Below, piece by piece: positions 27,335 to 47,554 of a stretch of 64,000 nucleotides of DNA. The DNA comes from Candidatus Faecicola pullistercoris (GTDB taxonomy: Bacteria; Bacillota; Clostridia; Christensenellales; CAG-917): positions 18,265 to 82,264 of the forward strand of contig DVNW01000003.1 in the NCBI GenBank assembly GCA_018714105.1. Direction: 5' to 3'. The notes below the pieces were generated by a model. That model was not told the DNA's origin. It saw nothing but the letters and a program-made list of their open reading frames with translations, and did no database searches. The translations under genes and the position numbers were made by a program. Position 1 is the stretch's first letter. Every line of letters begins with the position of its first letter.

Positions 27335-28732
27335 ATGCTTAAACTTTACAATACCTTAACCAGAAAGAAGGAAGAGTTCGTACCTCTGGATTCCAAAAAG
27401 GTAACGATGTATTCCTGCGGGCCCACGGTTTACGGCTACGCTCATATAGGAAACATGCGCACCTATATTTTTATGGATCTGATAAGGCGCGTGCTGAGGT
27501 ATGACGGATACAAGATAAAAGGCGTTATGAACATTACCGACGTAGGGCACCTGATGGCCGACAGCGACGACGGCGAGGATAAAATGGAAAAGGCCGCAAA
27601 GGAACAGCAGAAGAGCCCTTACGAAATCGCCGAACACTATACAAAGGCCTTTTTCGAGGACCTTGAAAGGCTCAATATCGGCCGTCCCGAGATAATAGCA
27701 AAGGCTACCGAGCACATTCCCGAAATGATAGACTTCGTCAAGGAGCTTCAGAACAAGGGCTACGGATACGAAACGTCGGACGGAATATATTACGATATAG
27801 CAAAATTCCCCGGGTACGGAAAGCTGTCGGGCGCAAAGCTGGACGAGCAGAAGGCGGGCGCAAGAGTGGAGGTCAACCCCGAAAAGCACAACGCCGCCGA
27901 CTTCGCTATATGGAAAAAGGCCGAAAAGGGCCATATAATGCAATGGCCCAGCCCGTGGGGAATGGGCTATCCGGGCTGGCACATAGAGTGTTCGGCCATG
28001 AGCATAAAATATCTGGGCAAGAAATTCGACATACACTCCGGCGGCGTAGATCATATTCCCATTCATCACGAAAACGAAATCGCGCAGAACGAGGCCTATA
28101 CGGGCGAAAAAAGCGTCAATTACTGGCTGCACGGCGAGTTTATGCTGGTGGACAACGGAAAGATGAGCAAAAGCCTGGGAAACACCTATACAATCAGTCA
28201 GCTGCAGGAAAAAGGATATGACCCCATGGTATTCAGGTTCTTCTGCGAAAACGCGCATTACCGCAAAAAACTTAATTTCACATTCGAAGGAATGGACGGC
28301 GCGAAAAAGTCGTACGAAAGGCTTCTGAGCACGCTGTATATGCATAAAAAGTCTTCGGCGGCGGCGCCTGCGGAAGTAATCGAAAAATACAAAACGGAGT
28401 TTAACAATGCAATAAACGACGATTTAAATATCCCTTTGGCGCTCGGAGTGCTGTTTACCATGCTTAAAGAGCCCAAAAGCTGCGACATATACAAAACGGC
28501 GCTCGAATTCGACAAGGTTCTGGGGTTGCGTCTCGACAAGGCAAGACCCGCGGAAGAGACGGCCGCTGTCGACGTACCCGAGGACGTGATGAAAATAGCG
28601 CAGCAGAGGGCCGAGGCCAAAAAGAACAGGGATTACGCCCTGGCCGACGCACTGAGAGCCGCGGCTGAAGAAAAAGGATACAGAATTATAGATAAGCCCG
28701 ACGGTTACGTCGTAGTCGCGGCAAACGAGTAG
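27335..28732 (+). CDS. cysS: Cysteine--tRNA ligase
   Basis: CGPTVY, HIGN, PGWHIEC, HHENE, KMSKS. Confidence 0.97.
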   Translation: MLKLYNTLTRKKEEFVPLDSKKVTMYSCGPTVYGYAHIGNMRTYIFMDLIRRVLRYDGYKIKGVMNITDVGHLMADSDDGEDKMEKAAKEQQKSPYEIAEHYTKAFFEDLERLNIGRPEIIAKATEHIPEMIDFVKELQNKGYGYETSDGIYYDIAKFPGYGKLSGAKLDEQKAGARVEVNPEKHNAADFAIWKKAEKGHIMQWPSPWGMGYPGWHIECSAMSIKYLGKKFDIHSGGVDHIPIHHENEIAQNEAYTGEKSVNYWLHGEFMLVDNGKMSKSLGNTYTISQLQEKGYDPMVFRFFCENAHYRKKLNFTFEGMDGAKKSYERLLSTLYMHKKSSAAAPAEVIEKYKTEFNNAINDDLNIPLALGVLFTMLKEPKSCDIYKTALEFDKVLGLRLDKARPAEETAAVDVPEDVMKIAQQRAEAKKNRDYALADALRAAAEEKGYRIIDKPDGYVVVAANE

Positions 28733-28742
28733 AGGAATAACC

Positions 28743-30329
28743 ATGTTAAGTTTCAGAAAGAAAAGAAAAGAGGAAAACGCGGCCGAAGAAAAAGAGGCCG
28801 CAAAGGAATTTGACGCGTCCGTAGCGGAAGCGCCTTCCGTCGGGTTGCCGTCAGAGTCGGCAGGGGCGGAGGAAAACGGGGATTTGAACGGCGCCGTCGA
28901 CCTGATTTCCGAAAAAGAGGGAGAGGAAGAAGAAAGCCTTACGGCCGACGCACGGGCCGACGGGGACGGCGTACTTGCTTTTGCAGCGGAAGAGCCGTCC
29001 GCACCCGAGGCTGCCGTCCGTCCCGAAAAGGCGGAAAGCGAGGGACCCTCGTTTGAAAGCCGCCAGCTCGAACTCGACGCCAGAAAGAAGGAAAAAGACG
29101 GAGAAAAGAAAAAGCAGGAAATATTAAGCCGTATTCACAACGAGCGGCTTACCGAAAGGGAGATGGCGGAATATACGGCCAAACAGGCGGTAGAAAGGAT
29201 AGAAGAGTTTTCCAGAGCCAGATATTCGGGCACGGACAACGAGCGCCTTGCCGCGCAGAAAATAAGGGACATCGTAGAGGAAAGCACGGGGCGCACAGCC
29301 AGACTCGAACCTTTTAACGTGTGGCCTTTTGCCGGAAGGCTGGGAATACCCGTATACGGAATGGCCTATCTGGCCGTGCTTTTGCTGTATATCATATATC
29401 AGCCTTTGGGAATAGTTCTTATACCCGTTCTCGCCGCGGTTATGCTGGTGCAGATAAGGTATAACGGCAACGTGTTCAGCAGGCTTTTCCCAAGAAAGAC
29501 CTCGTACAACGTCGTTTCCGAATACAGACGCGGGGACAAAACCGTCAACACCGTTATACTCGGCTGCCGATACGATACCGATTACGACAAGCCCGTCGAC
29601 CATTTTCTGGGCAGGCACAAGACCAATCCCAAGGTCAAGGAAACGGGCATCTGGCTTATCCTTATAAGCATGGCGCTGACGTTCGTGTTTGCCGTAATAC
29701 TTTCGGCCGTCAAAAATCCGCCAAAGGCGCTTAAAATAGTTCTGTTGCTGATAAACGTAATCGTATCCGGCCTGGCGATAGCCTATATGGCTACTTATTT
29801 CAATTATTTCAAAGACGCAGCGAGAGAAAGCAGAGAGGGCCTTTCCGGCCTGGGTATAGGACTGGCGATTATGAAATATTATACTCTGCATCCGTGGGAA
29901 CTGCCGGACGGAACGAAACTTGTGTTTGCCGCTTTCGGTAGTTCGTTTGCGGGGAACAAGGGCAGCGAAGCCTTTATCAAGGCGCACAGAAAAGACGACC
30001 TTTTGGTAAAACCGCTTATCATCGACCTCGACAACATGCTGGACGGCGAGTACGCCGTAACGGTTGCGGATACAGGGTTTAAAACGGATTACAACGCAAA
30101 ACTCTGTTCGGCCGTGGCGGAAGGAATCAAAGCGGGCGGCGGACAGGTTATAAAGGAAAGCAGACACTTTTATTACAACGACGCTCTTCCTTTCGCGAGG
30201 AAAGGCTATGCGGCTGTTTGCGTCAGCAGAAAATCGGGACACAAAAAGCAGGAATACAAGGACTGCGCGGACACTTATTCGCAGATGCTTGCCGCCGTAA
30301 GGGAAAGCATAAACGGGCTGAAACAATAG
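28743..30329 (+). CDS. Membrane protein with degenerate M28 peptidase-like fold and acidic N-terminus
   Basis: SYNVV, VILGCRYDT, FAAFGSSFAGNKGS, IIDLD, NDALPF resemble M28 segments; four TMs. Confidence 0.55.
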   Translation: MLSFRKKRKEENAAEEKEAAKEFDASVAEAPSVGLPSESAGAEENGDLNGAVDLISEKEGEEEESLTADARADGDGVLAFAAEEPSAPEAAVRPEKAESEGPSFESRQLELDARKKEKDGEKKKQEILSRIHNERLTEREMAEYTAKQAVERIEEFSRARYSGTDNERLAAQKIRDIVEESTGRTARLEPFNVWPFAGRLGIPVYGMAYLAVLLLYIIYQPLGIVLIPVLAAVMLVQIRYNGNVFSRLFPRKTSYNVVSEYRRGDKTVNTVILGCRYDTDYDKPVDHFLGRHKTNPKVKETGIWLILISMALTFVFAVILSAVKNPPKALKIVLLLINVIVSGLAIAYMATYFNYFKDAARESREGLSGLGIGLAIMKYYTLHPWELPDGTKLVFAAFGSSFAGNKGSEAFIKAHRKDDLLVKPLIIDLDNMLDGEYAVTVADTGFKTDYNAKLCSAVAEGIKAGGGQVIKESRHFYYNDALPFARKGYAAVCVSRKSGHKKQEYKDCADTYSQMLAAVRESINGLKQ

Positions 30330-30343
30330 CGAAAAACCAAAAT

Positions 30344-30372
30344 AAAACTCTTCCCCGCCGGGAAGAGTTTTT
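30344..30372. terminator. Bidirectional terminator
   Basis: AAAACTCTTCCC-cgcc-GGGAAGAGTTTT. Confidence 0.75.
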
Positions 30373-30384
30373 GCGTTACGGGTA

Positions 30385-31548
30385 TCAGATGTCGAGTTTC
30401 ATGTCGCCGTCTTTTATATGGCCTTTCTTGCGCATGAGAAGGCATACCGCCCAGCTTATCACCGCAGGCAAGACGAACAGCAGCAGAATTATGCCCAGTG
30501 CCAGAGTCCAGTCGTTTATCACTCCCTTGCTGGCGTCTATGGTGCCGAACACGCCTACAAGACCGCTTGTACCCATGCCGCCGCCGGACGCGTTACATCT
30601 GAGCTTGAATACGCAGGTCGATACGGGACCGAGTACGGCGCTTGCAACTATGGGCGGAATAAAGATTTTGGGATGTTTCATTATATTCGGGATTTGCAGC
30701 ATGCTTGTGCCCAGGCCCTGAGCTATAAGTCCGCCGAATCCGTTTTCGCGGTAGGACATTACGGCAAAACCTACCATCTGACAAGCGCAGCCCACTACCG
30801 CCGCGCCTCCCGCAAGCAGCATGGCGTCGCTGGTATTGGTAGCGGCTATGGACACCCATATGGCCGCCGAAGAAGTGGGCATTGTAAGCAGAATGCCCAT
30901 TATAACCGCAATTATCACGCCCATTACGAAGGGCTGAGCCGTCGTGGCAAGCTCGATCCATGTGCCGAGCAGCTCGGTAAACCTTACGAAGGGCCATGCG
31001 ACGTAAGCCGCAAGTATGGACGAAAGCATGCAGGTAAGCGGAACGAGAAGAATATCAAGTTTGGTTTTTCCCGAAACGAGGGAAGACAGTTCTATCGCTA
31101 TAACAGAGCACACGTAAGCGCCTATCGGATTGCCGGGCAGGGCTTTGGAGAGAAGCGCGGTTATATCCGAAAGCGTTCCTCCCGTAAACGCGGCGCCCGC
31201 GCCTATGAACTGATTGGAAAACGCGCCTATAAAGCCCGCGACTATGGAAGCGAAAACCACCATTTTGGGCGCTTTCAGATGAGAGGCTATGCCCGCGCCT
31301 ATGCCCGCGCCCATAAGTATCGAGGCAACCTGTCCCGCAAAATACAGTATGGCGCCGAAAGAATTGTCAAGGCCTATGAGTTCGCCTATCGTCTTTAATA
31401 TCGTACCCGCTATCAGGGTTACGAAAAGGCCCTGCGCCATGCCGCTGAAAGCGTCGATGAAATATCGTTTTAAAAGACGTTTTGCCACCGCGCCCCAGCC
31501 TTTGCTGTCGGGATATTCCCACGATTTTTTAAAATTGGATTTTTCCAT
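30385..31548 (-). CDS. PTS EIIC-like (PfoR/PF13303-type) membrane protein
   Basis: GMAQGLFVTLIAG, LDILLVP, PTSSAAI, AQGLGTSMLQIPNI, GMGTSGLVG. Confidence 0.8.
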   Translation of the reverse strand: MEKSNFKKSWEYPDSKGWGAVAKRLLKRYFIDAFSGMAQGLFVTLIAGTILKTIGELIGLDNSFGAILYFAGQVASILMGAGIGAGIASHLKAPKMVVFASIVAGFIGAFSNQFIGAGAAFTGGTLSDITALLSKALPGNPIGAYVCSVIAIELSSLVSGKTKLDILLVPLTCMLSSILAAYVAWPFVRFTELLGTWIELATTAQPFVMGVIIAVIMGILLTMPTSSAAIWVSIAATNTSDAMLLAGGAAVVGCACQMVGFAVMSYRENGFGGLIAQGLGTSMLQIPNIMKHPKIFIPPIVASAVLGPVSTCVFKLRCNASGGGMGTSGLVGVFGTIDASKGVINDWTLALGIILLLFVLPAVISWAVCLLMRKKGHIKDGDMKLDI

Positions 31549-31746
31549 TTCTTGCCCTCGGAAAAGTATTTAAGTAGAATATAGCACAAACACGAGGGGA
31601 CAGTCAAAGAAATAAAATAAAAATGACAAAAAAAAGAAAATAGACAAAACCGCGGTCGGTGTAGACGATTAAATGCGCAACCGTTCGCAGTCAGCCGTTC
31701 GGCAAAGAAAAATGCGCCTGACGGGGAACAAAAATTAAAAAAGGTA

Positions 31747-31775
31747 TTGAAAAAGATAAACGGATATGTTATGAT
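31747..31775 (+). promoter_or_regulatory. sigmaA promoter of the aminotransferase-transketolase operon
   Basis: TTGAAA-N17-TATGAT with TG extended -10. Confidence 0.65.
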
Positions 31776-31809
31776 TAATTCAATAATTATATAATAGGGA
31801 GGTAGTTCT

Positions 31810-32565
31810 ATGGACAATGTAACCAAGGCAAAAATCAATCTTTTTGCCGTATTACGCAACATGCAGGACCTGTGTGAAATGGACGCGCAATCCAAAGAAC
31901 TCATTAAAGATACCAAATTGGCGGTAGAGTTCAACGTACCCGACGTAGGCAGTGCGGTAATGAAGTTCGAAAACGGAAAATGCACTTTTACAAAAGGCAA
32001 GGGAAAAGCGGGTTTGAAATTATGGTTCACTTCGGCCGAGCATTTCAATAAACTTATCGACGGGGAAAAGACGGTACCCATTTTCATAAACGTTTTCAAA
32101 GTAAGTTTTCTTACCGGAATATTTACCAAACTGGCGGAACGCCTGACCTATTATTTAAAACCGACGGACGAGCTGCTTAAAGACGAGGATTATTTCAGAA
32201 TCAATACATACCTTACCGCGTATACCGCGTTCCACGCCCTCTGCGAGATAGGCAACAGCGACGAAATAGGCAAACTTAACGCGAGCAGAATTCCCGACGG
32301 CGAAATTCAGATGACCGTCGACGGCGGACCGCAGATGGTTATATCGGTAGACAAAAAGCATCGCCTTACGCCCTCTATCGGCACCAGCGCCAACCCCAGG
32401 GCTATTATGAGATTTTTCTCTTTGAAATCCTGCAACGACATTTTGAACGGAAAGTCCGATATATTCTCCGGACTCGGCGGCGGCACCTTTATGATTAAGG
32501 GATATCTGCCGATGTTAGACAATATGAGCAAACTGTTAAGTCAGGTAAGCAGATATTTGGCATAG
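31810..32565 (+). CDS. Hypothetical protein, tandem SCP2-like (lipid-binding) domains
   Basis: GGAGG RBS; two units of strand-strand-strand, xFxS-helix, ending ILNGKSD...GGGTFMIKG...L as in SCP2 folds (by eye). Confidence 0.55.
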   Translation: MDNVTKAKINLFAVLRNMQDLCEMDAQSKELIKDTKLAVEFNVPDVGSAVMKFENGKCTFTKGKGKAGLKLWFTSAEHFNKLIDGEKTVPIFINVFKVSFLTGIFTKLAERLTYYLKPTDELLKDEDYFRINTYLTAYTAFHALCEIGNSDEIGKLNASRIPDGEIQMTVDGGPQMVISVDKKHRLTPSIGTSANPRAIMRFFSLKSCNDILNGKSDIFSGLGGGTFMIKGYLPMLDNMSKLLSQVSRYLA

Positions 32566-32577
32566 GAGGTATTTGAG

Positions 32578-33858
32578 ATGAAATTTCCGATTAACGAATA
32601 TAAAAAGAGTAACGAACTGTATCAGAGGGCTCTTAAAGTAGTGCCCGGCGGCGTTTACGGCCACCTCGGCCCGTCCGAAGGCTGTGCTATACCCATTTCG
32701 GCGTTTCCCATATTCTCGTCCAAAGCCAAAGGAGCTTACTTCTGGGACGTGGACGGCAACAGGTTTGTGGATTATATGTGCGCTTACGGCCCCAACGTGC
32801 TGGGTTATAACGATCCCGACGTCGACGCGGCGGCCGCGGCTCAGCTCAAAAAGGGCAACTGCGTCACCATGCCCGGCGACGTAATGGTTCCTTTTGCCGA
32901 ACTTATGTGCGATACCGTAAACATGGCCGATTGGGTGGTTTTTGCCAAAAACGGCGGCGACGTTACTTCATACGCGGTCATGATAGCAAGGCAGGCAACC
33001 GCCCGAAAGAAAATACTTATGATAAAGGGCAGTTATCACGGCGTTGCGCCCTGGACGCAGAAACTCGGTCACGGCGGCATTATCCCCGAGGACGTATGCA
33101 ACAACCTTTACTGTACCTTTAACGATATAGAGGATTTCAAACGCGTAGTAGAAGCCAACAAGGGCGAGATAGCCTGCTTTATAACCACGCCTTATTCTCA
33201 TCCCATATTTACCGACAACGAACTTCCCAACGAAAACTGGTATAAAGAAGTACGCAGGATATGCGACGAAAACGGCATCGTGCTTATATTCGACGATATC
33301 CGTTGCGGTTTCAGGCTCAACGTAAAGGGCAGCGACTACCATTACGGCGTAAAGGCCGACCTGCAATGCTTCTGTAAGGCTCTCGCCAACGGATACAACG
33401 TATCCGCACTGTGCGGAACAGACGCACTCAGGGGTTACGCTACCGACGTTTACTATACCGGCTCGTACTGGCTGTCGGCCGAACCTTTTGCCGCAGGTAT
33501 CGCGTGTATTTCCAAAATGCTGAATACCGACAACTGGGGCGGAAAGCAGTTCCACGAATATATCAGGGCAAAAGGCGTAAAATTGCTGGACGGTCTCGTA
33601 GACGTGGCTAAAACCAACGGGTTCGACCTTGTAGTATCCGGCGAACCGGCGATGTGGTATATGCGTCTTAACAACGATTACACCACCATGTTGCATCAGG
33701 AATGGGTTGCCGAATGCGTCAAGAGGGGCGTGTTCTTCGTAAGCCACCACAACCACTTCATCAACGCGGCCCTGTCAGACGAGGATATTCAGTTTACCCT
33801 CGACGTTGCCGACGAAGCATACAAGGTAGTAAAGGCAAATCATCCTGAATTAGGCTAA
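32578..33858 (+). CDS. Class III PLP aminotransferase, FumI (aminopentol aminotransferase)-like
   Basis: PGGVYGH, DYMCAYGPNVLGY, ADWVVFAKNGGD, GSYHG, FDDIRCGFR, CFCKALANG (PLP Lys), TGSYWLSA. Confidence 0.8.
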   Translation: MKFPINEYKKSNELYQRALKVVPGGVYGHLGPSEGCAIPISAFPIFSSKAKGAYFWDVDGNRFVDYMCAYGPNVLGYNDPDVDAAAAAQLKKGNCVTMPGDVMVPFAELMCDTVNMADWVVFAKNGGDVTSYAVMIARQATARKKILMIKGSYHGVAPWTQKLGHGGIIPEDVCNNLYCTFNDIEDFKRVVEANKGEIACFITTPYSHPIFTDNELPNENWYKEVRRICDENGIVLIFDDIRCGFRLNVKGSDYHYGVKADLQCFCKALANGYNVSALCGTDALRGYATDVYYTGSYWLSAEPFAAGIACISKMLNTDNWGGKQFHEYIRAKGVKLLDGLVDVAKTNGFDLVVSGEPAMWYMRLNNDYTTMLHQEWVAECVKRGVFFVSHHNHFINAALSDEDIQFTLDVADEAYKVVKANHPELG

Positions 33859-33952
33859 AAACAAGGGTTTATCTTTGAATTTGCAGAGATAAACCCTGTT
33901 TATTTGCATTAATAATCAATTATTACAGACATATTTTAAGGAGGAAACATTT

Positions 33953-34822
33953 ATGGCTTTAACAAAAAAAGAATGGGTTGCCCTCGAAAACAAAGCCGCC
34001 GACCTCAGAGAGCTTTGTTTGGATACCGTCAAATGGGCCGGCAGCGGCCATATGGGCGGCAGCTTCAGTTCGGCAGACATTCTTACTCTTCTGTATTACA
34101 AATACGCTAATTTCGACCCCAAGGATCCCGAGAATCCCGACAGGGACAGAATAGTGGTTTCCAAAGGGCATATAGGTATAATACTTGCCCCGTTGTTCGT
34201 TCAGCTGGGATTGCTTGACAAAGAACAGCTCAAAACCTTCAACCTTACCGGAAGCAAACTGGGTATCCACCTCGACTGCAACAAGGTTAAGGGCTTGGAC
34301 AGCTCGACCGGTTCGCTCGGTCACGGCTCTTCGCTGGCGCTCGGCATGGCTCTCGCCGCCAGGGTAAAAGGTCAGAAATACAAGACCTTCCTCATACTCG
34401 GCGACGGCGAATGCGACGAAGGCTCCGTATGGGAAGCGGCCATGGCTACCGCTCACTTCAACGTAACCGACCTTATCACGATAGTAGACCGTAACCACAA
34501 CATGATAGACGGCAATACCGAAGACGTCATGAAGCTCGAACCCTTCGCCGACAAATGGACGGCTTTCGGATTCGAGACCATAGTAGTCGACGGGCATAAC
34601 ATGAACGCTTTGTCCGAGGCTCTCGACAAGGCATTCAAGGCAAAGGACAAACCCGTCTGCATCATTGCCGACACCGTAAAAGGCGAAGGCGTTTCCTTTG
34701 CGGCCGGAAATTACAAATGGCATTACGGCGCGCTTGACCAACCCAAGTACGAAACGGCCAAAAAAGATTTGGCCGAGCATCGCAAGATGAGAATCGAAAG
34801 AGCTGAGAAGGAGGGAATTTAA
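33953..34822 (+). CDS. Split transketolase, N-terminal (ThDP-binding) subunit
   Basis: SGHMGG, RDRIVVSKGH, STGSLGHG, GDGECDEG, DGH, TVKG. Confidence 0.92.
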   Translation: MALTKKEWVALENKAADLRELCLDTVKWAGSGHMGGSFSSADILTLLYYKYANFDPKDPENPDRDRIVVSKGHIGIILAPLFVQLGLLDKEQLKTFNLTGSKLGIHLDCNKVKGLDSSTGSLGHGSSLALGMALAARVKGQKYKTFLILGDGECDEGSVWEAAMATAHFNVTDLITIVDRNHNMIDGNTEDVMKLEPFADKWTAFGFETIVVDGHNMNALSEALDKAFKAKDKPVCIIADTVKGEGVSFAAGNYKWHYGALDQPKYETAKKDLAEHRKMRIERAEKEGI

Positions 34823-34824
34823 TC

Positions 34825-35835
34825 ATGGCTGGCGGATTAACATATACGGCGGTTGAAAGTACCAAAATGGCAACCGCGGAAATTTACGGTAAAACTCTTG
34901 TCGAACTGGGCGAGGAAAACCCCAATATCGTTGCTCTTACGGCCGACCTCGCTGGTTCTACCAAAATAGGCGAATTCAAAAACAGGTTCCCCGACAGATT
35001 CTTTAACGTCGGTATCGCCGAGCAGAACATGTACGGTACGGCGGCGGGTATGGCGAAATGCGGGCTTATTCCCTTTGCGTCGTCCTTCTCCGTTTTCGCG
35101 AGCCTCAGGTCTCTCGATCAGATTCACACCGATATCTGCTATCAGAACGTAAACGTTAAAATCATCGGTACGCACGGCGGCACCTCTTTCGGGCAGGCGG
35201 GTTCCACTCACCACGCCATCGAGGACTTTGCCGTTATCAGGGGCCTCGTAAACATGACGCTTATCTGTCCCGCGGACGGTATCGAAACGGGCCTCGCGGT
35301 AAGGGCTGCCGCTAACACCCCCGGACCGTTCTATATCAGAATAAACAGAGGTTTCGACCTTACCGTTTACAACACTTCGGATTACGGCTTCGAGGTAGGC
35401 AAAGCCGTTAAAATGGTTGACGGTACCGACCTTACCATCATCGCGTGCGGCTCTTGCGTATATCAGGCGGTTCAGGCTGCCAATATTCTGCAGCACGACC
35501 ACAAAATCAGCGCGAGAGTTCTTAACATGCATACCCTTAAACCTATCGACAGGGAAGCCATACTCGAAGCGGTTAAGGAAACCCGCCGTATAGTTACGGT
35601 TGAGGACCACACCGTTATAGGCGGCCTCGGCAGCGCCGTTGCCGAAGTTGTTGTCGAAGGCGGCAAGGCCTGCGCTTTCAGAAAGCTCGGTTTGCAGGAT
35701 AAGTTCTCTGCAATCGGCCTGCACGAAGACCTTATGGCTATGCACGAAATCGATGCCGAAGGTATCGTTAAAAACGTCCTCGAACTTATGAAGATGGACT
35801 TCGAAATGGACGAGGACTGGGGCGACGAGGTATAA
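34825..35835 (+). CDS. Split transketolase, C-terminal subunit
   Basis: ADLAGST, GIAEQNM, GSTHHAIED, TVEDH, GGLGSAV. Confidence 0.92.
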   Translation: MAGGLTYTAVESTKMATAEIYGKTLVELGEENPNIVALTADLAGSTKIGEFKNRFPDRFFNVGIAEQNMYGTAAGMAKCGLIPFASSFSVFASLRSLDQIHTDICYQNVNVKIIGTHGGTSFGQAGSTHHAIEDFAVIRGLVNMTLICPADGIETGLAVRAAANTPGPFYIRINRGFDLTVYNTSDYGFEVGKAVKMVDGTDLTIIACGSCVYQAVQAANILQHDHKISARVLNMHTLKPIDREAILEAVKETRRIVTVEDHTVIGGLGSAVAEVVVEGGKACAFRKLGLQDKFSAIGLHEDLMAMHEIDAEGIVKNVLELMKMDFEMDEDWGDEV

Positions 35836-35839
35836 TACT

Positions 35840-36676
35840 ATGGCAAAAGAAGTTAAAATCACTCAGGACGATTTGTATGCGGCCAGGATATTCTTTTATT
35901 CCGCTCTGCCGCTGCTGAAAGTCATTGCCGAGAGTGAGCCCAAATACGGCGACAAATTCAAAGGCAAAAGTTTTGTATTCCAGGTATCCGCGGCGTACGA
36001 AGGCGCGGAGGGCGGCAAAATGGCCACGCACTTTGTCGTTGAGGACGGAGTATGGACCACTTTCGTAGGGAAAGCGCACGAAGCGCCCGACGTTGAGTTT
36101 GCCTTTTCCGATCTGAAGAAGTTTATAATATTCTTCTCGGGCAAGGGTATGCCTCTTCCCAAAATCAAAGGCCTTACCAAACTCGGAGTGCTTGTCCCCA
36201 TACTCATGGCTCTGCTCAGAATGGCCGGGCTTTTGCAAGCGAAGGACGCACCCAAAAAGGACGAGGATCAGCAGATGCTCGTAAAACTTTACTTCTATCT
36301 GCTGCCCAACGGAATATCTCAGCTCAACAAACTCGGCCACCCCGAGGCCAAAGCCTTTACCGGGCCCAGCCCCGACCGCGCTTACGCGTGGGAAGTAACG
36401 GGTTATCCCGAGCTTAAATCCTGGCTCAGGATAAAGGCCGGCAACAGCAAGGCGGGCAGAGGAGAATATCAGCGTTGCAAACCCTTTTTGACCATGCGTT
36501 TCGACAGCACTCAGCATGCCCTCGACATACTTATGTCCAAAGGCGATATGATAGAGTACATGTCCAAAATGTGGCTTATTATCGACGGCGCGCCCGAATT
36601 CGGAGCCGTGCTGGGAGACCTTATGATGCTTGTAGGCTACTATGCCCAAGGCACTTATTTAGACGCGGCAAAATAA
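35840..36676 (+). CDS. Hypothetical protein, tandem SCP2-like domains
   Basis: HFVVEDGV...PDVEFAFSD and MRFDS...DILMSKGD...IIDG units parallel 31810..32565. Confidence 0.5.
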   Translation: MAKEVKITQDDLYAARIFFYSALPLLKVIAESEPKYGDKFKGKSFVFQVSAAYEGAEGGKMATHFVVEDGVWTTFVGKAHEAPDVEFAFSDLKKFIIFFSGKGMPLPKIKGLTKLGVLVPILMALLRMAGLLQAKDAPKKDEDQQMLVKLYFYLLPNGISQLNKLGHPEAKAFTGPSPDRAYAWEVTGYPELKSWLRIKAGNSKAGRGEYQRCKPFLTMRFDSTQHALDILMSKGDMIEYMSKMWLIIDGAPEFGAVLGDLMMLVGYYAQGTYLDAAK

Positions 36677-36687
36677 ATTTAAAAGTC

Positions 36688-36715
36688 AAAAGCGGGGTTT
36701 TAAGCCCCGCTTTTG
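36688..36715 (+). terminator. Intrinsic terminator ending the transketolase operon
   Basis: AAAAGCGGGG-ttttaag-CCCCGCTTTT. Confidence 0.7.
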
Positions 36716-36733
36716 CACAACTTAAAGGTTAAT

Positions 36734-37348
36734 ATGGCAATAAATTCATTGATTCTTGCGCTGACCGAGGCGCAAAGCACGGGTATTATGATGGGCGTTA
36801 TGGCCGCCGTAATACTCATTTTACTTGTTATCAAACTGTTGGGTACCTCTTACGGCGACCAGCACGTTTCCGACGGTTACCGCTTTATGAAAGAAGGCGA
36901 CTACGACAAGGCCGCTTTCCATTTCGAAAAGGCGATAAAGTCGGGAAAGTTCAAAAAACTTAAAATCCACAACGCTTACGAAGGTCTTGCGGAAACCGAA
37001 CTTTATCGCAAGAATTACGACCGCGCGGCAGAAAAGGCAAACGAAGCGCTTCTGCGCCATACGGAAGACAGCGCGGCGTATAACATTCTCGGCAGAGTGT
37101 ATTCCGAACAGGGCGACAGCCGGAAAGCGGTGGAAATGTTTCTCAAGCAGAGTCAGATAAAGGAAGATACCGATTGCTACGTTCTTCTGGCTTTCGAATA
37201 CGCGAGACTGGGCGACGAAAAGCAGGCAAACATAGCCGTCAACAACGCTCAGCGGCTCAAACATCCCGATATTAAAGAAATGCGCAAGGACATTAAGCGC
37301 ATCCTGAACGAGTCAAAAAGAAAAACCTCGGCAAAACAGGAGAAATAA
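36734..37348 (+). CDS. Membrane-anchored TPR protein
   Basis: One TM followed by TPR-like repeats (GDYDKAAFHFEKAI; AYNILGRVY..QGD..KAVEMF). Confidence 0.75.
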   Translation: MAINSLILALTEAQSTGIMMGVMAAVILILLVIKLLGTSYGDQHVSDGYRFMKEGDYDKAAFHFEKAIKSGKFKKLKIHNAYEGLAETELYRKNYDRAAEKANEALLRHTEDSAAYNILGRVYSEQGDSRKAVEMFLKQSQIKEDTDCYVLLAFEYARLGDEKQANIAVNNAQRLKHPDIKEMRKDIKRILNESKRKTSAKQEK

Positions 37349-37350
37349 AC

Positions 37351-38292
37351 ATGGTTAAAGCAGTAATTCTCGACGGGCATACAGTGAAGGGCGAGGACCT
37401 GAACTTCGACGCGATAAGGTGGCTTGTTGACCTTACGGAATACGACAATACCTCAAAAGAACAGGTAATCGGCCGTGTAAAAGGGGCTGAGATTGTGTTT
37501 ACCAACAAGGTGATTATAGATAAAGAGGTTATGGACGCCTGTCCCGAGCTCAGGTTTGTCGCGGTTTTCGCCACGGGCTATAACGTCGTGGATGTTAATT
37601 ATGCCAAAGAAAAGGGCATAACGGTCAGCAACGTACCCGCTTACAGCACGGACAGCGTCGTGCAGATGACTTTTGCGCTTATTTTGGAACTTGCGGTGCG
37701 CGTCAGCGTACACGCCAAAGCCGTTGCCGACGGGGAATGGAAAAGCTGTCCTTATTTCTGCTTCTGGAAAACGCCGCTTACCGAACTCAGCGGAAAAACC
37801 CTGGGCATAATAGGTTACGGCAGCATCGGCAAAGCCGTGGAAAAAGTAGCAAAAGCATTTAATATGAATGTGCTTGTACACAACCGCACGCCATTTGCGG
37901 GAAGCGTGGAACTCGAATATCTGCTGGAAAATTCGGATATAGTCAGTCTGCATTGTCCGCTTACGGCCAAAAACGCGAAAATGATAAACGGCGACGCTTT
38001 GGCTAAAATGAAAAAAACGGCTTTTCTGATAAATACGGCACGAGGCCCTCTTGTGGACGAACAGGCGTTGTATCAGGCCCTTAAAAACAAGGATATTGCG
38101 GGAGCCGCTCTGGACGTCATCGAAAAAGAGCCCATGGCGGCGGACAACAGGCTTGCCGAGCTTGACAACTGCGTCATTACGCCGCATATAGCATGGGCCA
38201 CCAAAGAGGCGAGATCGAGGCTGATAGAGATAAGCGTCCGAAATTTGAAGGGCTACCTTGACGGAAAGCCGATAAATACGGTAACCGGCTGA
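37351..38292 (+). CDS. D-2-hydroxyacid (glycerate/hydroxypyruvate reductase-like) dehydrogenase
   Basis: ATGYN, NVPAYST, GIIGYGSIG, HCPLT, INTARG, TPHIAW. Confidence 0.9.
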   Translation: MVKAVILDGHTVKGEDLNFDAIRWLVDLTEYDNTSKEQVIGRVKGAEIVFTNKVIIDKEVMDACPELRFVAVFATGYNVVDVNYAKEKGITVSNVPAYSTDSVVQMTFALILELAVRVSVHAKAVADGEWKSCPYFCFWKTPLTELSGKTLGIIGYGSIGKAVEKVAKAFNMNVLVHNRTPFAGSVELEYLLENSDIVSLHCPLTAKNAKMINGDALAKMKKTAFLINTARGPLVDEQALYQALKNKDIAGAALDVIEKEPMAADNRLAELDNCVITPHIAWATKEARSRLIEISVRNLKGYLDGKPINTVTG

Positions 38293-38367
38293 AACCCAAA
38301 TCCCCGCGCGGGGATTTTTATTTTGAAAAAAGGAATGGTTTTAGGATTATAGCGCATAATAACGCCG

Positions 38368-38814
38368 ATGAATAAAACCGCAGTTTTATATTTAATACTG
38401 TTCGCGGCGGTCGCGACGGCGTTCGCGATTCCGGCGGAAGGAGAAAGGGCAATGGCTATTACCGTGGATTTCGAAACGGTCGGAGACGGATACGTCAGGC
38501 TGTTCGAAGAAAGGATTTTATCCGAAAAAGTCGTATCTGGAAAAAGCGCGGAGGAAATAGAAGATATTGCCCGAAAGCTTAAAGTAAGCCCGCGAAAGGC
38601 AAAATGCCTGATGTGTCTGCGCGCGGCCGTTATGGACGGCGGAGGGGAAATAACCCTTGAAGAGCTTGCGCGAAAGAGCGACGCCGAACTTACAGGGATA
38701 TTTGTTTCTTATTATAAGGAAAAGGCCAAAACCATGTCGCGGCAGCAGAAAAAAGCAGTGGGCGAGGAGTTCAGGCGGCTGAAAAGGGAAGAGCCTATAA
38801 AAATCAAACTGTGA
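38368..38814 (+). CDS. Hypothetical protein, possibly secreted
   Basis: Signal-peptide-like N-terminus; alternative start at ATG 38452 after AAGGAG. Confidence 0.5.
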   Translation: MNKTAVLYLILFAAVATAFAIPAEGERAMAITVDFETVGDGYVRLFEERILSEKVVSGKSAEEIEDIARKLKVSPRKAKCLMCLRAAVMDGGGEITLEELARKSDAELTGIFVSYYKEKAKTMSRQQKKAVGEEFRRLKREEPIKIKL

Positions 38815-38857
38815 TTTTACAGCTGCAAAACGCGGCATAAAATACCGTTTATGCAAT

Positions 38858-38887
38858 AAAAAAGCGGCGCCGAAGCGCCGCTTTTTA
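38858..38887. terminator. Bidirectional terminator
   Basis: AAAAAGCGGCGC-cgaa-GCGCCGCTTTTT. Confidence 0.78.
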
Positions 38888-38895
38888 TTATTTTT

Positions 38896-39540
38896 TTATT
38901 TGGTACGAATGGTTTTAATAAACAGAGAGTAAAGAAGTTCGTCCGAAAATTCCTTCGCGCCGGTTTTTTCCAGCACGGTTTTGACGATATATTCGCGGCA
39001 GCCTTCTTCCAGAACGCGGATTGCCTCGAATGCGTCTTCCACCGTGGCTCCGCAGGCGAACACGCCGTGGTTGGCAAGGAAACAGCCGTTACGGTCTTTC
39101 AGGGCTTCGAGAGTGTTGGCCGTGATTTTTTTGGTGCCGGGAAGGCCGTATTTGGCGCATCTGGCTTCGCCGCCTATATATTTTGCCATTCTGTCGTTCA
39201 TTACGGGAAGGGATTTCCTCGTGGAGGCAAAGATACTGCACTGAGTGGGGTGGCTGTGAAGCACTACGTTTATTTCGGGTCTGTCGCGGAGTATGGCGGC
39301 GTGGATTTTTCTTTCGCTGGTGGGTTTTTTGGGGCCCGTCCATTCGAGGGTGTTTATGTCCACTATAGCCATGTCTTCGGGCGTCAGGGTGATATAATCC
39401 AGTCCGCTGGGAGTTACCAGCATGCGGTTTTCGTCGAGGCGTATGGAGATATTGCCCCAGGTTCCCTGAACGAGGTTTTCTTTAAGCATATCGACGCCGG
39501 CCTGTTTTACGGCACAGCGCAGTTCGTATTCGTTAGCCAT
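38896..39540 (-). CDS. Class II aldolase (L-fuculose-1-phosphate aldolase-like), catalytic residues intact
   Basis: GTWGNIS, TPSG, PTSE (catalytic Glu), HSH, LANHG zinc ligands. Confidence 0.88.
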   Translation of the reverse strand: MANEYELRCAVKQAGVDMLKENLVQGTWGNISIRLDENRMLVTPSGLDYITLTPEDMAIVDINTLEWTGPKKPTSERKIHAAILRDRPEINVVLHSHPTQCSIFASTRKSLPVMNDRMAKYIGGEARCAKYGLPGTKKITANTLEALKDRNGCFLANHGVFACGATVEDAFEAIRVLEEGCREYIVKTVLEKTGAKEFSDELLYSLFIKTIRTK

Positions 39541-39550
39541 AAGTCCCTCC

Positions 39551-40219
39551 TTAATTGTGTTCTTCGTTCATTTTGGCCGCCTGGTTGGCTTTGCTGTACT
39601 TCTTCTTGTAGATGAAGCGTTGCAGATTGGCGTCCAGAAATCCGAGTGATACGCAGCCGCCTATTATCGTCCCTTCTATAAAGGTCTTGGCGGCTTTTTC
39701 GAGAACGAGACAGGCGGTATAGGCTTCGTCGAGAGTCCTTCCGCTGCTGAGCATTCCCTTGTTTCTGACCAGGCAGGCGTTACGTCCTTTAATGGCTTTG
39801 AGCACGTATTCGCACGTAAGGTCCTGCGCCGTTTTGATATTCGCGCCCACAATCTGCGACATATCGTCGAGAACGGGAGGAATGGTAACGCCCTCGTTTG
39901 CGCAGACGCAGGCGTTGACGGGCTGAGTATGCATAATGGCACCCGTTTCGGGCTGAGCCTTATAGATACCGGTATGTACGGCTATTTCGGCCTTTTCCTT
40001 TTCGGAGACGTTTGCCGACCCGAAGAAGGATACGTTTATGATGTCGGCTTCGGTCAGATTTGCCAGATCCGCGCCGTGCCTGGTGATATACATTGCGCTT
40101 TCGCCTTCTTTTACGCTAACGGTGCCGTTTTCGCCCACGAGGTTTTCGTCGGAGAGTTTTTTAGCGTATTCTATAATGGCCGCAACAAGAGTTTTGTTCA
40201 TTTTAAAGTTCTCCTTCAA
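39551..40219 (-). CDS. Class II aldolase-family paralog with degenerate zinc site
   Basis: Same fold pattern but HTQ in place of HxH and RNKG in place of NHG. Confidence 0.75.
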   Translation of the reverse strand: MKENFKMNKTLVAAIIEYAKKLSDENLVGENGTVSVKEGESAMYITRHGADLANLTEADIINVSFFGSANVSEKEKAEIAVHTGIYKAQPETGAIMHTQPVNACVCANEGVTIPPVLDDMSQIVGANIKTAQDLTCEYVLKAIKGRNACLVRNKGMLSSGRTLDEAYTACLVLEKAAKTFIEGTIIGGCVSLGFLDANLQRFIYKKKYSKANQAAKMNEEHN

Positions 40220-41732: not shown

Positions 41733-41756
41733 AATTTACCTCTTACGCAAGGGGAT

Positions 41757-43253: not shown

Positions 43254-43265
43254 TTTTCTGACCTC

Positions 43266-43844: not shown

Positions 43845-44311
43845 CAGCCGTCGCCACCCTTTATTAACGTTTTTAAACGTCAGTTTAAGTACTGTTTAAA
43901 TTTTACCATACGAAAGAGCAAAAAGTAAAGCAAATTAAAAAAATAATTGTACTGAGGTGCAATTTTATACGAAAATACAAAAATGACCTCGGCGGCCGCC
44001 GGCAAAAGGATTCGGCCGTGCGGCAAAGCGCAAAAGGCCTAATACGGGCGGCGGAACGCTACCGAGCGCAGGCTGCCGAAAAGCTGCGACCGAGAATAAA
44101 TTGTCGGAAACCGCTGTTAAAAGCGGGAATTTAGCTTTTAAACCTCGCATTTGCTTTAAATAAAAAGTTTTGCCGTTTCGGCGAAAATGCAGCGGCAAAG
44201 GCGCATAATCCTTTCCGTAAAGTCCTTCGTCGGCTCTTTTTGCGCTGAAAAACGGGCCGCCGTCAGGAATGCGCGGAGCTTTTCTTTTATATATATACTA
44301 TCGATTATTTG

Positions 44312-44340
44312 TTGACATATCGCGATTTTGCGGTTATAAT
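44312..44340 (+). promoter_or_regulatory. sigmaA promoter of greA-lysS
   Basis: TTGACA-N17-TATAAT. Confidence 0.8.
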
Positions 44341-44391
44341 CAAATACATTATACGGGTTTTTATCCGTATTATTTTTAAGGAGCTTTAATA

Positions 44392-44865: not shown

Positions 44866-44882
44866 TTTTTCGGGTAAAACTT

Positions 44883-47516: not shown

Positions 47517-47554
47517 AAGAAGTCCTTTAAAAAAGGGCGGAGGACAACCCCTTT

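Follow-up and report, generated by a model that had tools for sequence, protein, structure and literature searches.

Sphingoid bases are made by serine palmitoyltransferase and 3-ketosphinganine reductase and broken down by a kinase and sphingosine-1-phosphate lyase, with PLP enzymes forming or cutting the C2-C3 bond on the amine or on its 1-phosphate. A different enzyme, the class III PLP-fold aminotransferase FumI of Sphingopyxis sp. MTA144 (PDB 6hbs), which acts with FumD in fumonisin breakdown in this aerobic proteobacterium, is reported to use pyruvate as acceptor in removing the C2 amino group from a long-chain 2-amino-3-ol, an analogue of sphinganine, and to have a Km of 1.1 uM (PMC3136697). 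Deamination of this 1-deoxy substrate leaves a methyl ketone, on which a transketolase (TK) could not act. No SCP2 partner or transketolase was found described for FumI in the source passages, which do not name the genes of the cluster.

Transketolases have been coupled to transaminases in engineered cascades for chiral 2-amino-1,3-diols, which take short, soluble substrates and operate in the direction of synthesis (PMC5813273), and E. coli TK has been evolved into variants (D469T, R520Q, S385Y; PMC5073344, PMC7661550). In anisomycin clusters of Streptomyces, a natural transketolase-family enzyme for non-phosphorylated substrates is conserved with an aminotransferase (AniP, AniQ and AniN; PMC11387542). 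According to the same source, AniP is a fused protein of 603 aa without the His-rich motif, its donors are aromatic keto acids, and the clusters as presented there are without SCP2 proteins.

Here we describe an operon from an anaerobic Clostridia-class gut bacterium that has the same enzyme types and would have the same head-group chemistry as the engineered cascades but, unlike them, is natural and pairs each enzyme with a predicted lipid carrier. With a probability of roughly 0.45, we read it as encoding two successive steps that convert a hydrophobic, unphosphorylated 2-amino-1,3-diol, most plausibly a sphingoid base, in breakdown or detoxification. No account of such an operon turned up in literature searches.

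Operon layout and the SCP2-like proteins

Seven co-oriented genes at 31810-38292 of the window (the whole stretch of DNA analysed, 64,000 nucleotides) form the operon; the original prediction had covered three of them. In order, they encode an SCP2-like protein 'a', an aminotransferase, TK alpha, TK beta, a second SCP2-like protein 'b', a TPR protein and a dehydrogenase, with gaps of 2 to 94 nt within the cassette. A consensus scan, by pattern match only, places a promoter-like site (TTGAAA, 17 nt, TATGAT, with TG preceding the second hexamer) at 31747-31775 on the forward strand, 35 nt 5' of the first gene, against a background of 14 such sites in the region versus 8.3 expected. A 14-bp stem-loop at 33864-33897 (+), within the 94 nt that separate the aminotransferase gene from the TK genes, is a putative weak terminator-like or attenuator-like element and is spanned by one RNA-library contig. 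Six nucleotides past the dehydrogenase stop codon, a hairpin followed by a T run (38298-38317, +; pattern match only) likely marks the operon end. Four metatranscriptome libraries of animal gut or faeces, belonging to three studies, contain contigs of at least 95% identity that cover the operon genes and bridge each junction from 'a' through the TPR gene; this support is weak because such libraries can contain DNA.

Protein 'a' (31810-32565, +; 251 aa) itself has no Pfam match, but 40 of the 64 members of its family match SCP2 (PF02036) at E<=0.01. Its AF2 model (pLDDT 93.3) has SCP2 proteins and alkylsulfatase SCP2 domains as top Foldseek matches in the PDB. Protein 'b' (35840-36676, +; 278 aa) likewise lacks a Pfam match, and 589 relatives were found for it, unnamed in all 120 of the matches listed. 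The model of 'b' (pLDDT 94.1) agrees with 'a' in the order of its secondary-structure elements and also finds SCP2 and alkylsulfatase SCP2 domains, and the two sequences align over their full length by BLASTP (E 0.006). As such, 'b' is a distant paralogue of 'a', and both are predicted from their models to adopt SCP2-type lipid-carrier folds. Protein 'a' lies immediately 5' of the aminotransferase in all 13 genome loci (the window, L001, L002 and L018-L027) and 'b' immediately 3' of TK beta wherever the contig extends; 'a' is thus the constant partner of the aminotransferase, and 'b' of the transketolase.

The two distal genes are less constant. The TPR-repeat protein (36713-37348, +; 211 aa; Pfam TPR families), probably anchored in the membrane by an N-terminal hydrophobic stretch, has a TPR-type counterpart at the corresponding place in close lineages only (L033, L044, L045, L107). 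The last gene (37351-38292, +; 313 aa) encodes by Pfam a D-2-hydroxyacid dehydrogenase of the glycerate dehydrogenase / glyoxylate-hydroxypyruvate reductase type. Its NCBIfam matches stay under cut-off, and its PDB relatives are led by the uncharacterised 5tx7, followed by the glycerate dehydrogenase/glyoxylate reductase 2cuk and glyoxylate reductases. A dehydrogenase of this type also lies 3' of the cassette in L001, L002, L033, L034, L035, L038, L039, L044, L045 and L107.

A FumI-like aminotransferase and a transketolase with an altered pocket

The aminotransferase (32578-33858, +; 426 aa) is assigned to class III by its translation and by Pfam (Aminotran_3, E 2.9e-36), NCBIfam and PDB matches. 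All six motifs of the original prediction (PGGVYGH, DYMCAYGPNVLGY, ADWVVFAKNG, TPYSH, DDIRCGFR and TGSYWLSA) are present in this reading frame, and the likeness to FumI was borne out: 6hbs, 'Aminopentol aminotransferase', leads the PDB matches (E 3.7e-91, 309 bits, residues 11-419), and FumI carries the same motifs, including DD.R.GFR. Across 43 relatives, D239, D240, R242, G244 and R246 are invariant, and at least 90% of these proteins retain K267. The proposed comparison with HemL gave a clear difference, the best HemL in the PDB search being 4e77 (E 1.1e-45, 159 bits), and no NCBIfam HemL model reached its cut-off (217.9 versus 398; 196.1 versus 527.3). These scores rule out a HemL identity and support assignment of the sequence as FumI-like. 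However, only about 155 of 409 alignment columns are identical to FumI (38%, a hand count from the PDB-search alignment), and characterised fumonisin transaminases share 61-74% mutual identity (PMC9858248), so that carrying over the FumI substrate is a lead only, which counts against the main reading.

The split transketolase consists of an N-terminal, ThDP-binding alpha subunit (33953-34822, +; 289 aa; Pfam Transketolase_N, E 8.7e-44) and a beta subunit with the pyrimidine-binding and C-terminal domains (34825-35835, +; 336 aa; Transket_pyr, E 1.6e-39; Transketolase_C, E 1.9e-28). It shares its two-gene architecture, ThDP/metal motifs and catalytic His and Glu residues with the enzyme of Carboxydothermus hydrogenoformans (6yaj/6yak; beta E 7.8e-81, alpha E 4.1e-66). 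Alpha keeps four His aligned with H37, H77, H110 and H258 of human TK, together with the GDG...N metal/ThDP motif, and beta retains S45, E66, H117, H129 and R175. The C. hydrogenoformans enzyme has Arg36 and the Glu-Asp of GEDG, whereas the cassette TK has Ala18 at the position of this Arg (human R318) and Gln124-Ala125 in place of Glu-Asp.

Both positions are altered in most or all cassette transketolases. Of 26 non-redundant TK-beta sequences, 25 have Ala and one has Gly at the equivalent of E. coli D469, and the R358 equivalent is Ala in 20, Gly in three and Ser in one, with Arg kept in two. By contrast, among the split TKs of 399 Clostridia genomes, the next-best 24 all keep the Arg and GEDG, and none has 'b' on its 3' side. 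In a quick tree, a branch with SH-aLRT 100 separates the cassette enzymes, which are always followed by the SCP2-like gene, from the others. They form a clade separate from ordinary Clostridia split TKs, one that has lost the Asp for the sugar hydroxyl and usually one phosphate-binding Arg; a second phosphate-binding Arg (R520 equivalent), a His and a Ser persist. In E. coli TK, D469 is reported to hydrogen-bond sugar hydroxyls and to select the stereoisomer, and changes at R358, S385, D469 and R520 to shift the enzyme to non-phosphorylated, non-polar substrates (PMC11387542, PMC7661550, PMC5073344). Two of the positions altered by engineers, D469 and R358, are therefore changed naturally here, and R520 is retained. 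Since all catalytic His residues (unlike in AniP) and Glu residues are kept, transfer of a glycolaldehyde unit would still be expected, requiring a 1-hydroxy-2-ketone.

Conservation and neighbours of the cassette

The pairing of the aminotransferase with the split transketolase, as originally proposed, is real, conserved and not accidental in both genome and metagenome loci. The five-gene order a-AT-TKalpha-TKbeta-b is present in 47 of 77 metagenome loci, another 26 being cut by contig ends and four being exceptions. Among 31 protein-'b' clusters built at 90% identity, 12 show the full cassette, at identities to the window's 'b' that reach as low as 40%.

The aminotransferase (AT) and 'a' also occur with no adjacent transketolase in seven of the 13 genome loci (L021-L027), so the coupling is frequent, not obligatory. 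TK and 'b' stand with no adjacent aminotransferase in L044, L107, L047, L137 and L138, which argues against the main reading; in genomes G106 and G389, no aminotransferase match at E<=1e-80 was found anywhere. In L018, the AT pair and the TK pair lie on opposite strands with two unrelated genes between them. These arrangements are what one would see if the two enzyme-carrier pairs were independent modules, often adjacent, with no common intermediate. We regard this as quite improbable, given that the order is kept in 12 of the 14 'b' clusters whose contig allows judgement, with such short gaps in the window, that the carriers are paralogues, and that C2 transamination of a 2-amino-1,3-diol, established chemistry for both families, gives exactly the head group a transketolase requires.

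The surroundings of the window's operon might instead suggest a sugar pathway. A PTS_EIIC_2-type permease (30385-31548, reverse strand; PF13303, E 2.7e-81) is divergent from it, and adjoining genes on the opposite strand encode an FGGY kinase, two members of the class II aldolase family and a second aminotransferase. Split transketolases serve special sugar pathways such as those of apiose (apulose-4-phosphate) and sulfoquinovose breakdown. The aminotransferase could then turn a 2-amino-2-deoxy-polyol into a ketose, which an ordinary sugar-phosphate TK would feed into the pentose phosphate pathway. However, the permease and the kinase/aldolase cluster, along with greA and lysS, are neighbours of the cassette only in the window's family and one related gut lineage and not in more distant loci, and no conserved kinase or sugar transporter was found with the cassette. 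With the lost Arg and Asp of the TK and two partner proteins predicted to be SCP2 folds, an amino-sugar or aminopolyol route is highly improbable. As a neighbour of the cassette, the permease is confined to the window's own family and close lineages (L018, L044, L050, L107), so shared descent could explain the pairing; it may be a transporter, but its membership of the operon is doubtful.

Substrate and direction of the proposed pathway

Substrate, direction, carrier roles and two-carbon acceptor are what we infer in the following scheme. The lipid amine would be held by 'a', and the aminotransferase would pass its C2 amino group to a 2-oxo acid, giving a 1,3-dihydroxy-2-ketone with a ketose head group. 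The split transketolase, with 'b', would then cut the C2-C3 bond, releasing a long-chain aldehyde and keeping the glycolaldehyde unit on thiamine diphosphate, from which it would go to an acceptor or be freed. Variable 3' oxidoreductases may process the products or co-substrates: the glyoxylate/hydroxypyruvate-reductase-like enzyme here, and elsewhere an enoate-reductase-like protein immediately 3' of the cassette (L019, L043, L047), aldehyde:ferredoxin oxidoreductase (L019), an Fe-dependent alcohol dehydrogenase (L047) and Zn-dependent ones (L047, L137, L138). Such a path would share with canonical sphingoid-base metabolism the class of molecule at its start or end, and with canonical breakdown the long-chain aldehyde, but would run through a 2-ketone with thiamine diphosphate.

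Breakdown is slightly favoured over a serine-palmitoyltransferase-independent synthesis because ligand-type regulators adjoin the cassette (MerR in L043, L047 and L137; TetR in L019 and L084; AraC in L084), because aldehyde- or enal-handling enzymes do so as well, because the distribution is patchy (11 of 399 genomes), and because the AT-carrier pair stands alone in more than half of its genome loci, as expected if deamination were useful by itself. Synthesis would use the same chemistry in reverse: the dehydrogenase would convert D-glycerate to hydroxypyruvate, the TK would transfer the two-carbon unit of hydroxypyruvate onto a fatty aldehyde, CO2 being lost, and the aminotransferase would aminate C2 of the resulting 1,3-dihydroxy-2-ketone, the SCP2-like proteins carrying aldehyde, ketone and amine. 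The in-operon dehydrogenase, of a type also found 3' of the cassette elsewhere, is more simply explained as a supplier of hydroxypyruvate in this direction. The missing R358 and D469 equivalents are in keeping with this reaction, in which both substrates would be unphosphorylated and the acceptor would have no 2-hydroxyl; laboratory changes at these positions are reported to let E. coli TK take non-polar aldehydes with hydroxypyruvate (PMC5073344, PMC7661550). The order transketolase, aminotransferase, SDR is reported as natural in anisomycin synthesis (AniP, AniQ, AniN; PMC11387542), an engineered cascade is described as making amino-diols (PMC5813273), and housekeeping genes surround the cassette in L092, L093, L096 and L101. 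Nevertheless, we consider synthesis unlikely: the sole characterised relatives of the aminotransferase are catabolic, the pair often lacks an adjacent TK, the regulators and enoate reductase suit inducible breakdown better, 11 of 399 is unlike a core membrane-lipid pathway, and a canonical (S)-selective TK would yield the non-natural C3 configuration. Sphingoid lipids are not known to us from these Clostridia, and literature searches found no report of them.

Stereochemistry bears on breakdown as well, as the ketone from a D-erythro sphingoid base would be 3R and known transketolases use 3S; ten wild-type split TKs are reported as all (S)-selective (PMC13663882). In the breakdown direction, an acceptor for the two-carbon unit is also not evident, and the remaining R520-equivalent Arg, His and Ser count against the main reading. 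The coupled lipid amino-diol conversion of the original prediction is partly supported, by the FumI-like enzyme, the conserved TK pairing, the predicted SCP2 folds and the lost TK residues; sphinganine would be a candidate substrate and breakdown a candidate direction, the hydroxypyruvate-reductase-like gene suiting synthesis equally.

A hydrophobic substrate outside the sphingoid bases, such as a long-chain triol or ketol, or a 2-amino-1,3-diol of xenobiotic or secondary-metabolite origin, aromatic or otherwise, would make the cassette a general detoxification or salvage module. This is improbable, as FumI is reported to act on a long aliphatic chain (PMC3136697), two dedicated carriers of about 250-280 aa exceed the needs of a moderately soluble aromatic amine, and conserved aromatic-ring enzymes were not found near the cassette. 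Against a lipid substrate, SCP2 folds also bind non-lipid hydrophobic ligands and, with the altered pocket, indicate merely 'hydrophobic, unphosphorylated'. Changes at D469 are reported to open E. coli TK to aromatic aldehydes (PMC5073344), and one natural split TK with a D469L equivalent to take aromatic acceptors (PMC13663882). The cassette is also present in metagenomes without a gut label. In L047, L137 and L138, the Zn-dependent alcohol dehydrogenase replaces the aminotransferase, which suggests that the ketols may be reached from alcohols too.

An operon wider than the enzyme pair

The region at 32578-35835 had been read, from its sequence, as a FumI-like aminotransferase coupled to a split transketolase, and it does hold three co-oriented open reading frames with the Pfam domains claimed; every motif listed in the original prediction is present in the 426-aa translation of the first of them, at 32578-33858. 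The operon is wider than this stretch, with seven genes lying head to tail on the forward strand, separated by gaps of 2 to 94 nucleotides. The first gene encodes a 251-aa protein, here called 'a' (31810-32565), and is followed by the aminotransferase (32578-33858; 426 aa, class III by Pfam), transketolase alpha (33953-34822; 289 aa, the N-terminal ThDP-binding part by Pfam) and transketolase beta (34825-35835; 336 aa, the pyrimidine-binding and C-terminal parts by Pfam). A 278-aa protein, here called 'b' (35840-36676), completes a five-gene core that we refer to as the cassette, and the operon ends with a TPR protein bearing an N-terminal hydrophobic segment (36713-37348) and a D-2-hydroxyacid dehydrogenase (37351-38292). 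A promoter-like site at 31747-31775 and a terminator-like hairpin just 3' of the dehydrogenase at 38298-38317 were found, both as pattern matches only. An Rfam scan of positions 28000-45000 matched no family, the TPP riboswitch included.

Contigs assembled from four metatranscriptome libraries, which come from three studies on animal gut or faeces, align to the operon with at least 95% identity and span the junctions a/aminotransferase, aminotransferase/alpha, alpha/beta, beta/b and b/TPR. Such libraries can include DNA, and their contigs reveal no level, strand or single transcript, so that the matches only hint weakly at transcription of these genes in the gut; the stretches they leave uncovered, at approximately 33268-33491 and 36852-37523, carry no meaning.

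The aminotransferase matches PF00202 over residues 43-396 (125.5 bits against a cut-off of 30.5, E = 2.9e-36). The likeness to FumI had been proposed from motifs, and it is borne out by the best PDB match, the 'Aminopentol aminotransferase' of Sphingopyxis (6hbs, FumI), at 309.3 bits (E = 3.7e-91, residues 11-419), compared with 159.4 bits for the best glutamate-1-semialdehyde aminomutase (HemL), a ranking judged by score alone. No NCBIfam model reaches its cut-off, and the HemL models fall well below theirs (NF000818, 217.9 against 398; NF004856, 209.6 against 486; TIGR00713, 196.1 against 527.3), so the alternative that the protein groups with HemL is not what the scores indicate. In pairwise alignment FumI shares the sequence blocks noted originally, among them DD.R.GFR and the PLP-binding lysine: K267 and the pyridine-nitrogen aspartate at D239/D240 align with identical FumI residues. 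Across 43 relatives, no change occurs at D239, D240, R242, G244 or R246, and at least 90% of them have K267. Counted by hand on the alignment, identity to FumI is about 155 of 409 aligned columns (38%). Because characterised fumonisin transaminases are reported to be 61-74% identical to one another (PMC9858248), the aminotransferase is a relative of FumI rather than its orthologue. FumI itself deaminates hydrolysed fumonisin B1, an analogue of sphinganine, at C2, with pyruvate as the preferred acceptor and a Km of 1.1 uM (PMC3136697).

Carrier-like partners and conservation of the cassette

Neither 'a' nor 'b' of the window has a Pfam match, even at an E-value of 5. All 210 relatives of 'a' are unnamed or 'hypothetical' except one 'putative sterol carrier protein', and 40 of 64 aligned relatives match the SCP2 family PF02036 at E <= 0.01 (best 1.1e-10). 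The AlphaFold model of 'a' (pLDDT 93.3) has strong PDB fold matches by Foldseek exclusively to SCP2 proteins or to the SCP2 domain of alkylsulfatases. Protein 'b' has 589 relatives; among the 120 listed, none is named and none carries a precomputed Pfam domain, and no match to PF02036 was obtained for the three members scanned (window, L019, L092). One look-alike Atlas cluster has SCP2 on 20% of its members. The model of 'b' (pLDDT 94.1) repeats the succession of helices and strands found in 'a' and matched the same structures. For both proteins Foldseek gives a probability of 1.00 for many SCP2 structures and alkylsulfatase SCP2 domains, these being matches of predicted models that each span about half of the protein; a single SCP2 domain is roughly half as large as either 'a' or 'b'. 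Full-length alignment of the two gives 22% identity (E = 0.006), and they are distant paralogues. From these models, both appear to be SCP2-type carrier folds, and their folds suggest that they may bind lipids. A predicted complex of the aminotransferase with 'a' scored 0.72, a value that is not specific, as a control reached 0.65.

A close aminotransferase homolog (E <= 1e-80) occurs in 11 of 399 sampled genomes of the same class. At all 13 genome loci compared (10 retrieved regions, two close relatives and the window), the gene immediately before the aminotransferase is that of 'a'. The transketolase and 'b' follow in the window and in L001, L002, L019 and L020, and in L018 they are nearby on the opposite strand; at the other seven loci the aminotransferase and 'a' stand alone amid unrelated genes, with a short-chain dehydrogenase adjoining in two. 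Scanning metagenomes with a profile of 'b' yielded 77 loci, 47 of which carry the full five genes in the same order over approximately 4.8-5.1 kb, while another 26 end at a contig edge and are compatible with that order. Three loci have room upstream yet lack the aminotransferase and 'a' (L044 and L107, of one lineage, and L047). The remaining one, L070, has homology to its sister contigs beginning only about 250 nucleotides before 'b', and we treat it as rearranged or misassembled. One human-gut lineage supplies 36 of the 77 loci; at 90% identity of 'b' they reduce to 31 clusters, with the full cassette in 12, no aminotransferase in two, and the remainder cut by contig ends. In genomes G106 and G389, too, transketolase alpha, beta and 'b' are followed by a Zn-dependent alcohol dehydrogenase and no aminotransferase match is found at E <= 1e-80. 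Since either pair occurs without the other, the cassette is made up of two closely linked pairs, aminotransferase plus 'a' and transketolase plus 'b', that are usually but not always joined.

Zn-dependent alcohol dehydrogenases of unusual length (403-442 aa) sit beside the transketolase and 'b' in cassettes without the aminotransferase, at L047:5494-6822, L137:2445-3665 and L138:1134-2345. Their position there suggests that the ketol used by the transketolase is also reachable from an alcohol.

A transketolase clade with an altered pocket

The two transketolase genes, 2 nucleotides apart, carry PF00456 (alpha) and PF02779 with PF02780 (beta). The beta subunit aligns with the solved split transketolase of Carboxydothermus hydrogenoformans (E = 7.8e-81) and with human transketolase, as does alpha. 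The alignments retain four histidines of alpha, the GDG...N metal motif, the cofactor-activating glutamate and two histidines of beta; in beta, H117, H129 and E66 are conserved across all cassette rows covering those positions. Two sites differ: Ala18 of beta replaces human R318 (R36 in C. hydrogenoformans), and Gln124-Ala125 replace the Glu-Asp of the GEDG motif (human D424). These positions correspond to what we take to be R358 and D469 of the Escherichia coli enzyme, a conversion of numbering checked by the spacing of the residues. The equivalents of E. coli S385, H461, H473 and R520 are kept (S45, H117 and R175 for S385, H461 and R520), leaving the sugar-phosphate pocket (R358/S385/H461/R520) incomplete.

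For comparison, we aligned the 30 best beta-subunit matches from the 399 genomes together with the cassette loci, giving 26 non-redundant cassette rows. The R358 equivalent is Ala in 20 of these, Gly in three, Ser in one and Arg in two (L110 and L111). The aspartate that binds the acceptor 2-hydroxyl (D469 equivalent) is Ala in 25 and Gly in one, whereas it is Asp in all 24 next-best split transketolases, which also retain the Arg and GEDG without exception. No 'b' was found within the available sequence (at least 1.47 kb) downstream of these 24. Conversely, every transketolase with 'b' downstream lacks the Asp, and 24 of the 26 lack the Arg as well. A quick maximum-likelihood tree, computed without five rows (three exact duplicates of other loci, L094, and the N-terminally cut L040), sets the 26 cassette rows apart from all others by a single branch (SH-aLRT 100; stem length 0.93 changes per site). 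On these alignments and this tree, the cassette transketolases are a separate clade with an altered pocket.

In the E. coli enzyme, D469 is described as taking part in the hydrogen bonds to the sugar hydroxyls and as selecting the stereoisomer (PMC11387542), and mutations of R358, S385, D469 and R520 are reported to shift activity to non-phosphorylated, non-polar or aromatic aldehydes (PMC7661550, PMC5073344). Given these effects and the residues lost, the cassette transketolase looks suited to an unphosphorylated substrate, that is, a donor or acceptor with neither a phosphate nor a hydroxyl beside the reacting centre. By its residues it can probably still carry a glycolaldehyde unit, which requires a 1-hydroxy-2-ketone; for this reason a 2-amino-1,3-diol would fit better than the 1-deoxy skeleton of fumonisin. 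As to the known special split transketolases, those for apulose-4-phosphate and for sulfo-sugars, no apiose or sulfoquinovose pathway genes occur among the conserved cassette neighbors.

The stereochemical caveat of the original prediction still holds: from natural D-erythro bases the ketone would be 3R, and the ten wild-type split transketolases tested in one study are reported to have kept (S)-selectivity (PMC13663882). The sequence is undecided between 3R and 3S, because the changed residue governs the centre neighboring C3 rather than C3 itself.

The only other split transketolase in the window's genome (contig C18, L029) and its counterpart at L018:1822-3395 keep the Arg and represent a third, divergent type. 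Its beta subunit has Asp at the first active-site histidine (H461 equivalent) and Asn at the D469 equivalent, so its pocket is likewise unusual, if it is the pentose-phosphate enzyme.

A candidate lipid amino-diol pathway and its direction

The enzyme families, the pairing and order of the genes, the predicted folds and the pocket changes together lead us to infer a pathway acting on a hydrophobic 2-amino-1,3-diol. Protein 'a' would hold the amino-diol while the aminotransferase deaminates C2, giving a 1,3-dihydroxy-2-ketone; the transketolase, aided by 'b', would then split the C2-C3 bond, freeing a long-chain aldehyde and leaving a two-carbon unit on ThDP, and enzymes from the tail of the operon would process the aldehyde or the co-substrates. 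We slightly favor this direction, breakdown or detoxification of sphingoid bases, at a probability of roughly 0.45. It is favored because every relative of the aminotransferase that has been characterised is a detoxifying deaminase, because the aminotransferase and its carrier often stand as a pair alone, because the distribution is patchy, and because ligand-type regulators and enzymes that handle aldehydes or enals recur beside the cassette. Among the latter, an enoate-reductase-like flavoprotein lies directly downstream in L019, L043 and L047, and would suit the 2-enal expected from sphingosine. L019 also has an aldehyde:ferredoxin oxidoreductase and a TetR regulator as neighbors, and L047 an Fe-alcohol dehydrogenase; a MerR regulator is upstream in L043 and L047 and downstream in L137 (the G106 locus), and L084 has AraC and TetR.

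The same genes could run in reverse, with hydroxypyruvate and a fatty aldehyde joined first and the product then aminated, which we consider rather improbable as the natural direction. Synthesis accounts at least equally well for the transketolase pocket and for the hydroxypyruvate-reductase-like gene of the operon, and it requires no unknown acceptor. The nearest PDB structures to this dehydrogenase, after one uncharacterised entry, are a glycerate dehydrogenase/glyoxylate reductase and then glyoxylate reductases, and a homolog lies 3' of the cassette in ten loci (L001, L002, L033, L034, L035, L038, L039, L044, L045 and L107). Still less probable is the proposition that anaerobic gut bacteria of the class Clostridia make sphingoid-like long-chain 2-amino-1,3-diols in this way, without serine palmitoyltransferase. 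On that view a dedicated transketolase would extend a fatty aldehyde by two carbons taken from hydroxypyruvate, which the in-operon dehydrogenase, or the aminotransferase acting on serine, would supply; amination of the resulting ketone would fall to the FumI-like aminotransferase, and the SCP2-type carriers would handle the lipids. If true, this would make the operon nature's equivalent of the engineered transketolase-transaminase cascade and give sphingoid bases a second origin, unrelated to the first.

In either direction, we rate the cassette as known kinds of enzyme assembled into an undescribed pathway. Fumonisin breakdown uses an aminotransferase of the same clade, and we know of no transketolase step in it. 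Ordinary split transketolases share the fold, but differ in the pocket and have no carrier partner. Engineered transketolase-transaminase cascades perform the same chemistry but are man-made, and AniP/AniQ/AniN of anisomycin synthesis, a natural transketolase-aminotransferase cluster, uses another type of transketolase on aromatic substrates. Full-text literature searches returned no description of this operon or of a transketolase acting on sphingoid-type lipids, and nothing relevant on sphinganine degradation by gut bacteria or on Christensenella and sphingolipids.

Sphingoid bases are signalling lipids and natural antibacterials of gut and skin; to our knowledge, little has been established about how anaerobic gut bacteria break them down, withstand them or produce them. 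The cassette offers a directly testable candidate route, based on thiamine chemistry on a lipid 'ketose', which we know from no described sphingolipid pathway. It would also give a first functional context to two large unnamed protein families (210 and 589 sequence clusters). A natural transketolase clade apparently already adapted to non-polar, unphosphorylated substrates, and a putative aminotransferase for long-chain amino-diols, are both sought-after biocatalysts, and the aminotransferase family may matter in the detoxification of sphinganine-analogue mycotoxins in the animal gut.

The surroundings of the cassette vary, and in L092, L093, L096 and L101 it lies amid housekeeping genes. DegV, alanine racemase and a class IV aminotransferase are upstream in L002 and L038, and L039 shows DegV and alanine racemase. 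The racemase, together with the class IV enzyme in L002 and L038, is directly upstream (L002:7186-9088, L038:3948-5853, L039:4731-5855), preceded on the opposite strand by the DegV fatty-acid-binding gene in these three related lineages, and the class IV enzyme of L002 and L038 is of the D-amino-acid type. This arrangement could be due to chance or could be a link to the alanine/pyruvate pair of FumI-type enzymes.

A convergent minus-strand cluster at 38896-43844 was considered as part of the pathway and set aside. It comprises two class II aldolase/adducin-family genes (38896-39540 and 39551-40219), an FGGY sugar kinase (40203-41732), a 498-aa HemL-like class III aminotransferase (41757-43253; under all NCBIfam cut-offs, best PDB match HemL at about 211 bits) and a TetR regulator (43266-43844). 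We excluded it because it accompanies the cassette only in close lineages, namely the window's family and one related gut lineage, where greA and lysS accompany it too, and is absent beside distant cassettes. The cluster recurs in a related human-gut lineage, there lacking a kinase match. It could encode an aminopolyol or amino-sugar pathway.

A search of the window's genome for neutral ceramidase (PF04734) gave no match, which is uninformative as control genomes were equally without one. Upstream of the operon, a PTS_EIIC_2 (PF13303) membrane protein gene on the minus strand (30385-31548), with no adjoining EIIA or EIIB gene, is conserved beside the cassette in the window's family (L018, L044, L050 and L107). 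Two forward-strand open reading frames, of 1,027 aa (22697-25780) and 528 aa (28743-30329), have no significant Pfam or NCBIfam match; the latter is acidic in its N-terminal part and contains several hydrophobic segments, and a 31%-identical counterpart lies upstream of the cassette in L050. Finally, at 46431-49588 on the minus strand, a 361-aa radical SAM/SPASM protein adjoins a 677-aa protein with a sulfatase-family domain, a pair resembling a sulfatase and its maturase, or else an enzyme of the LtaS-like kind.
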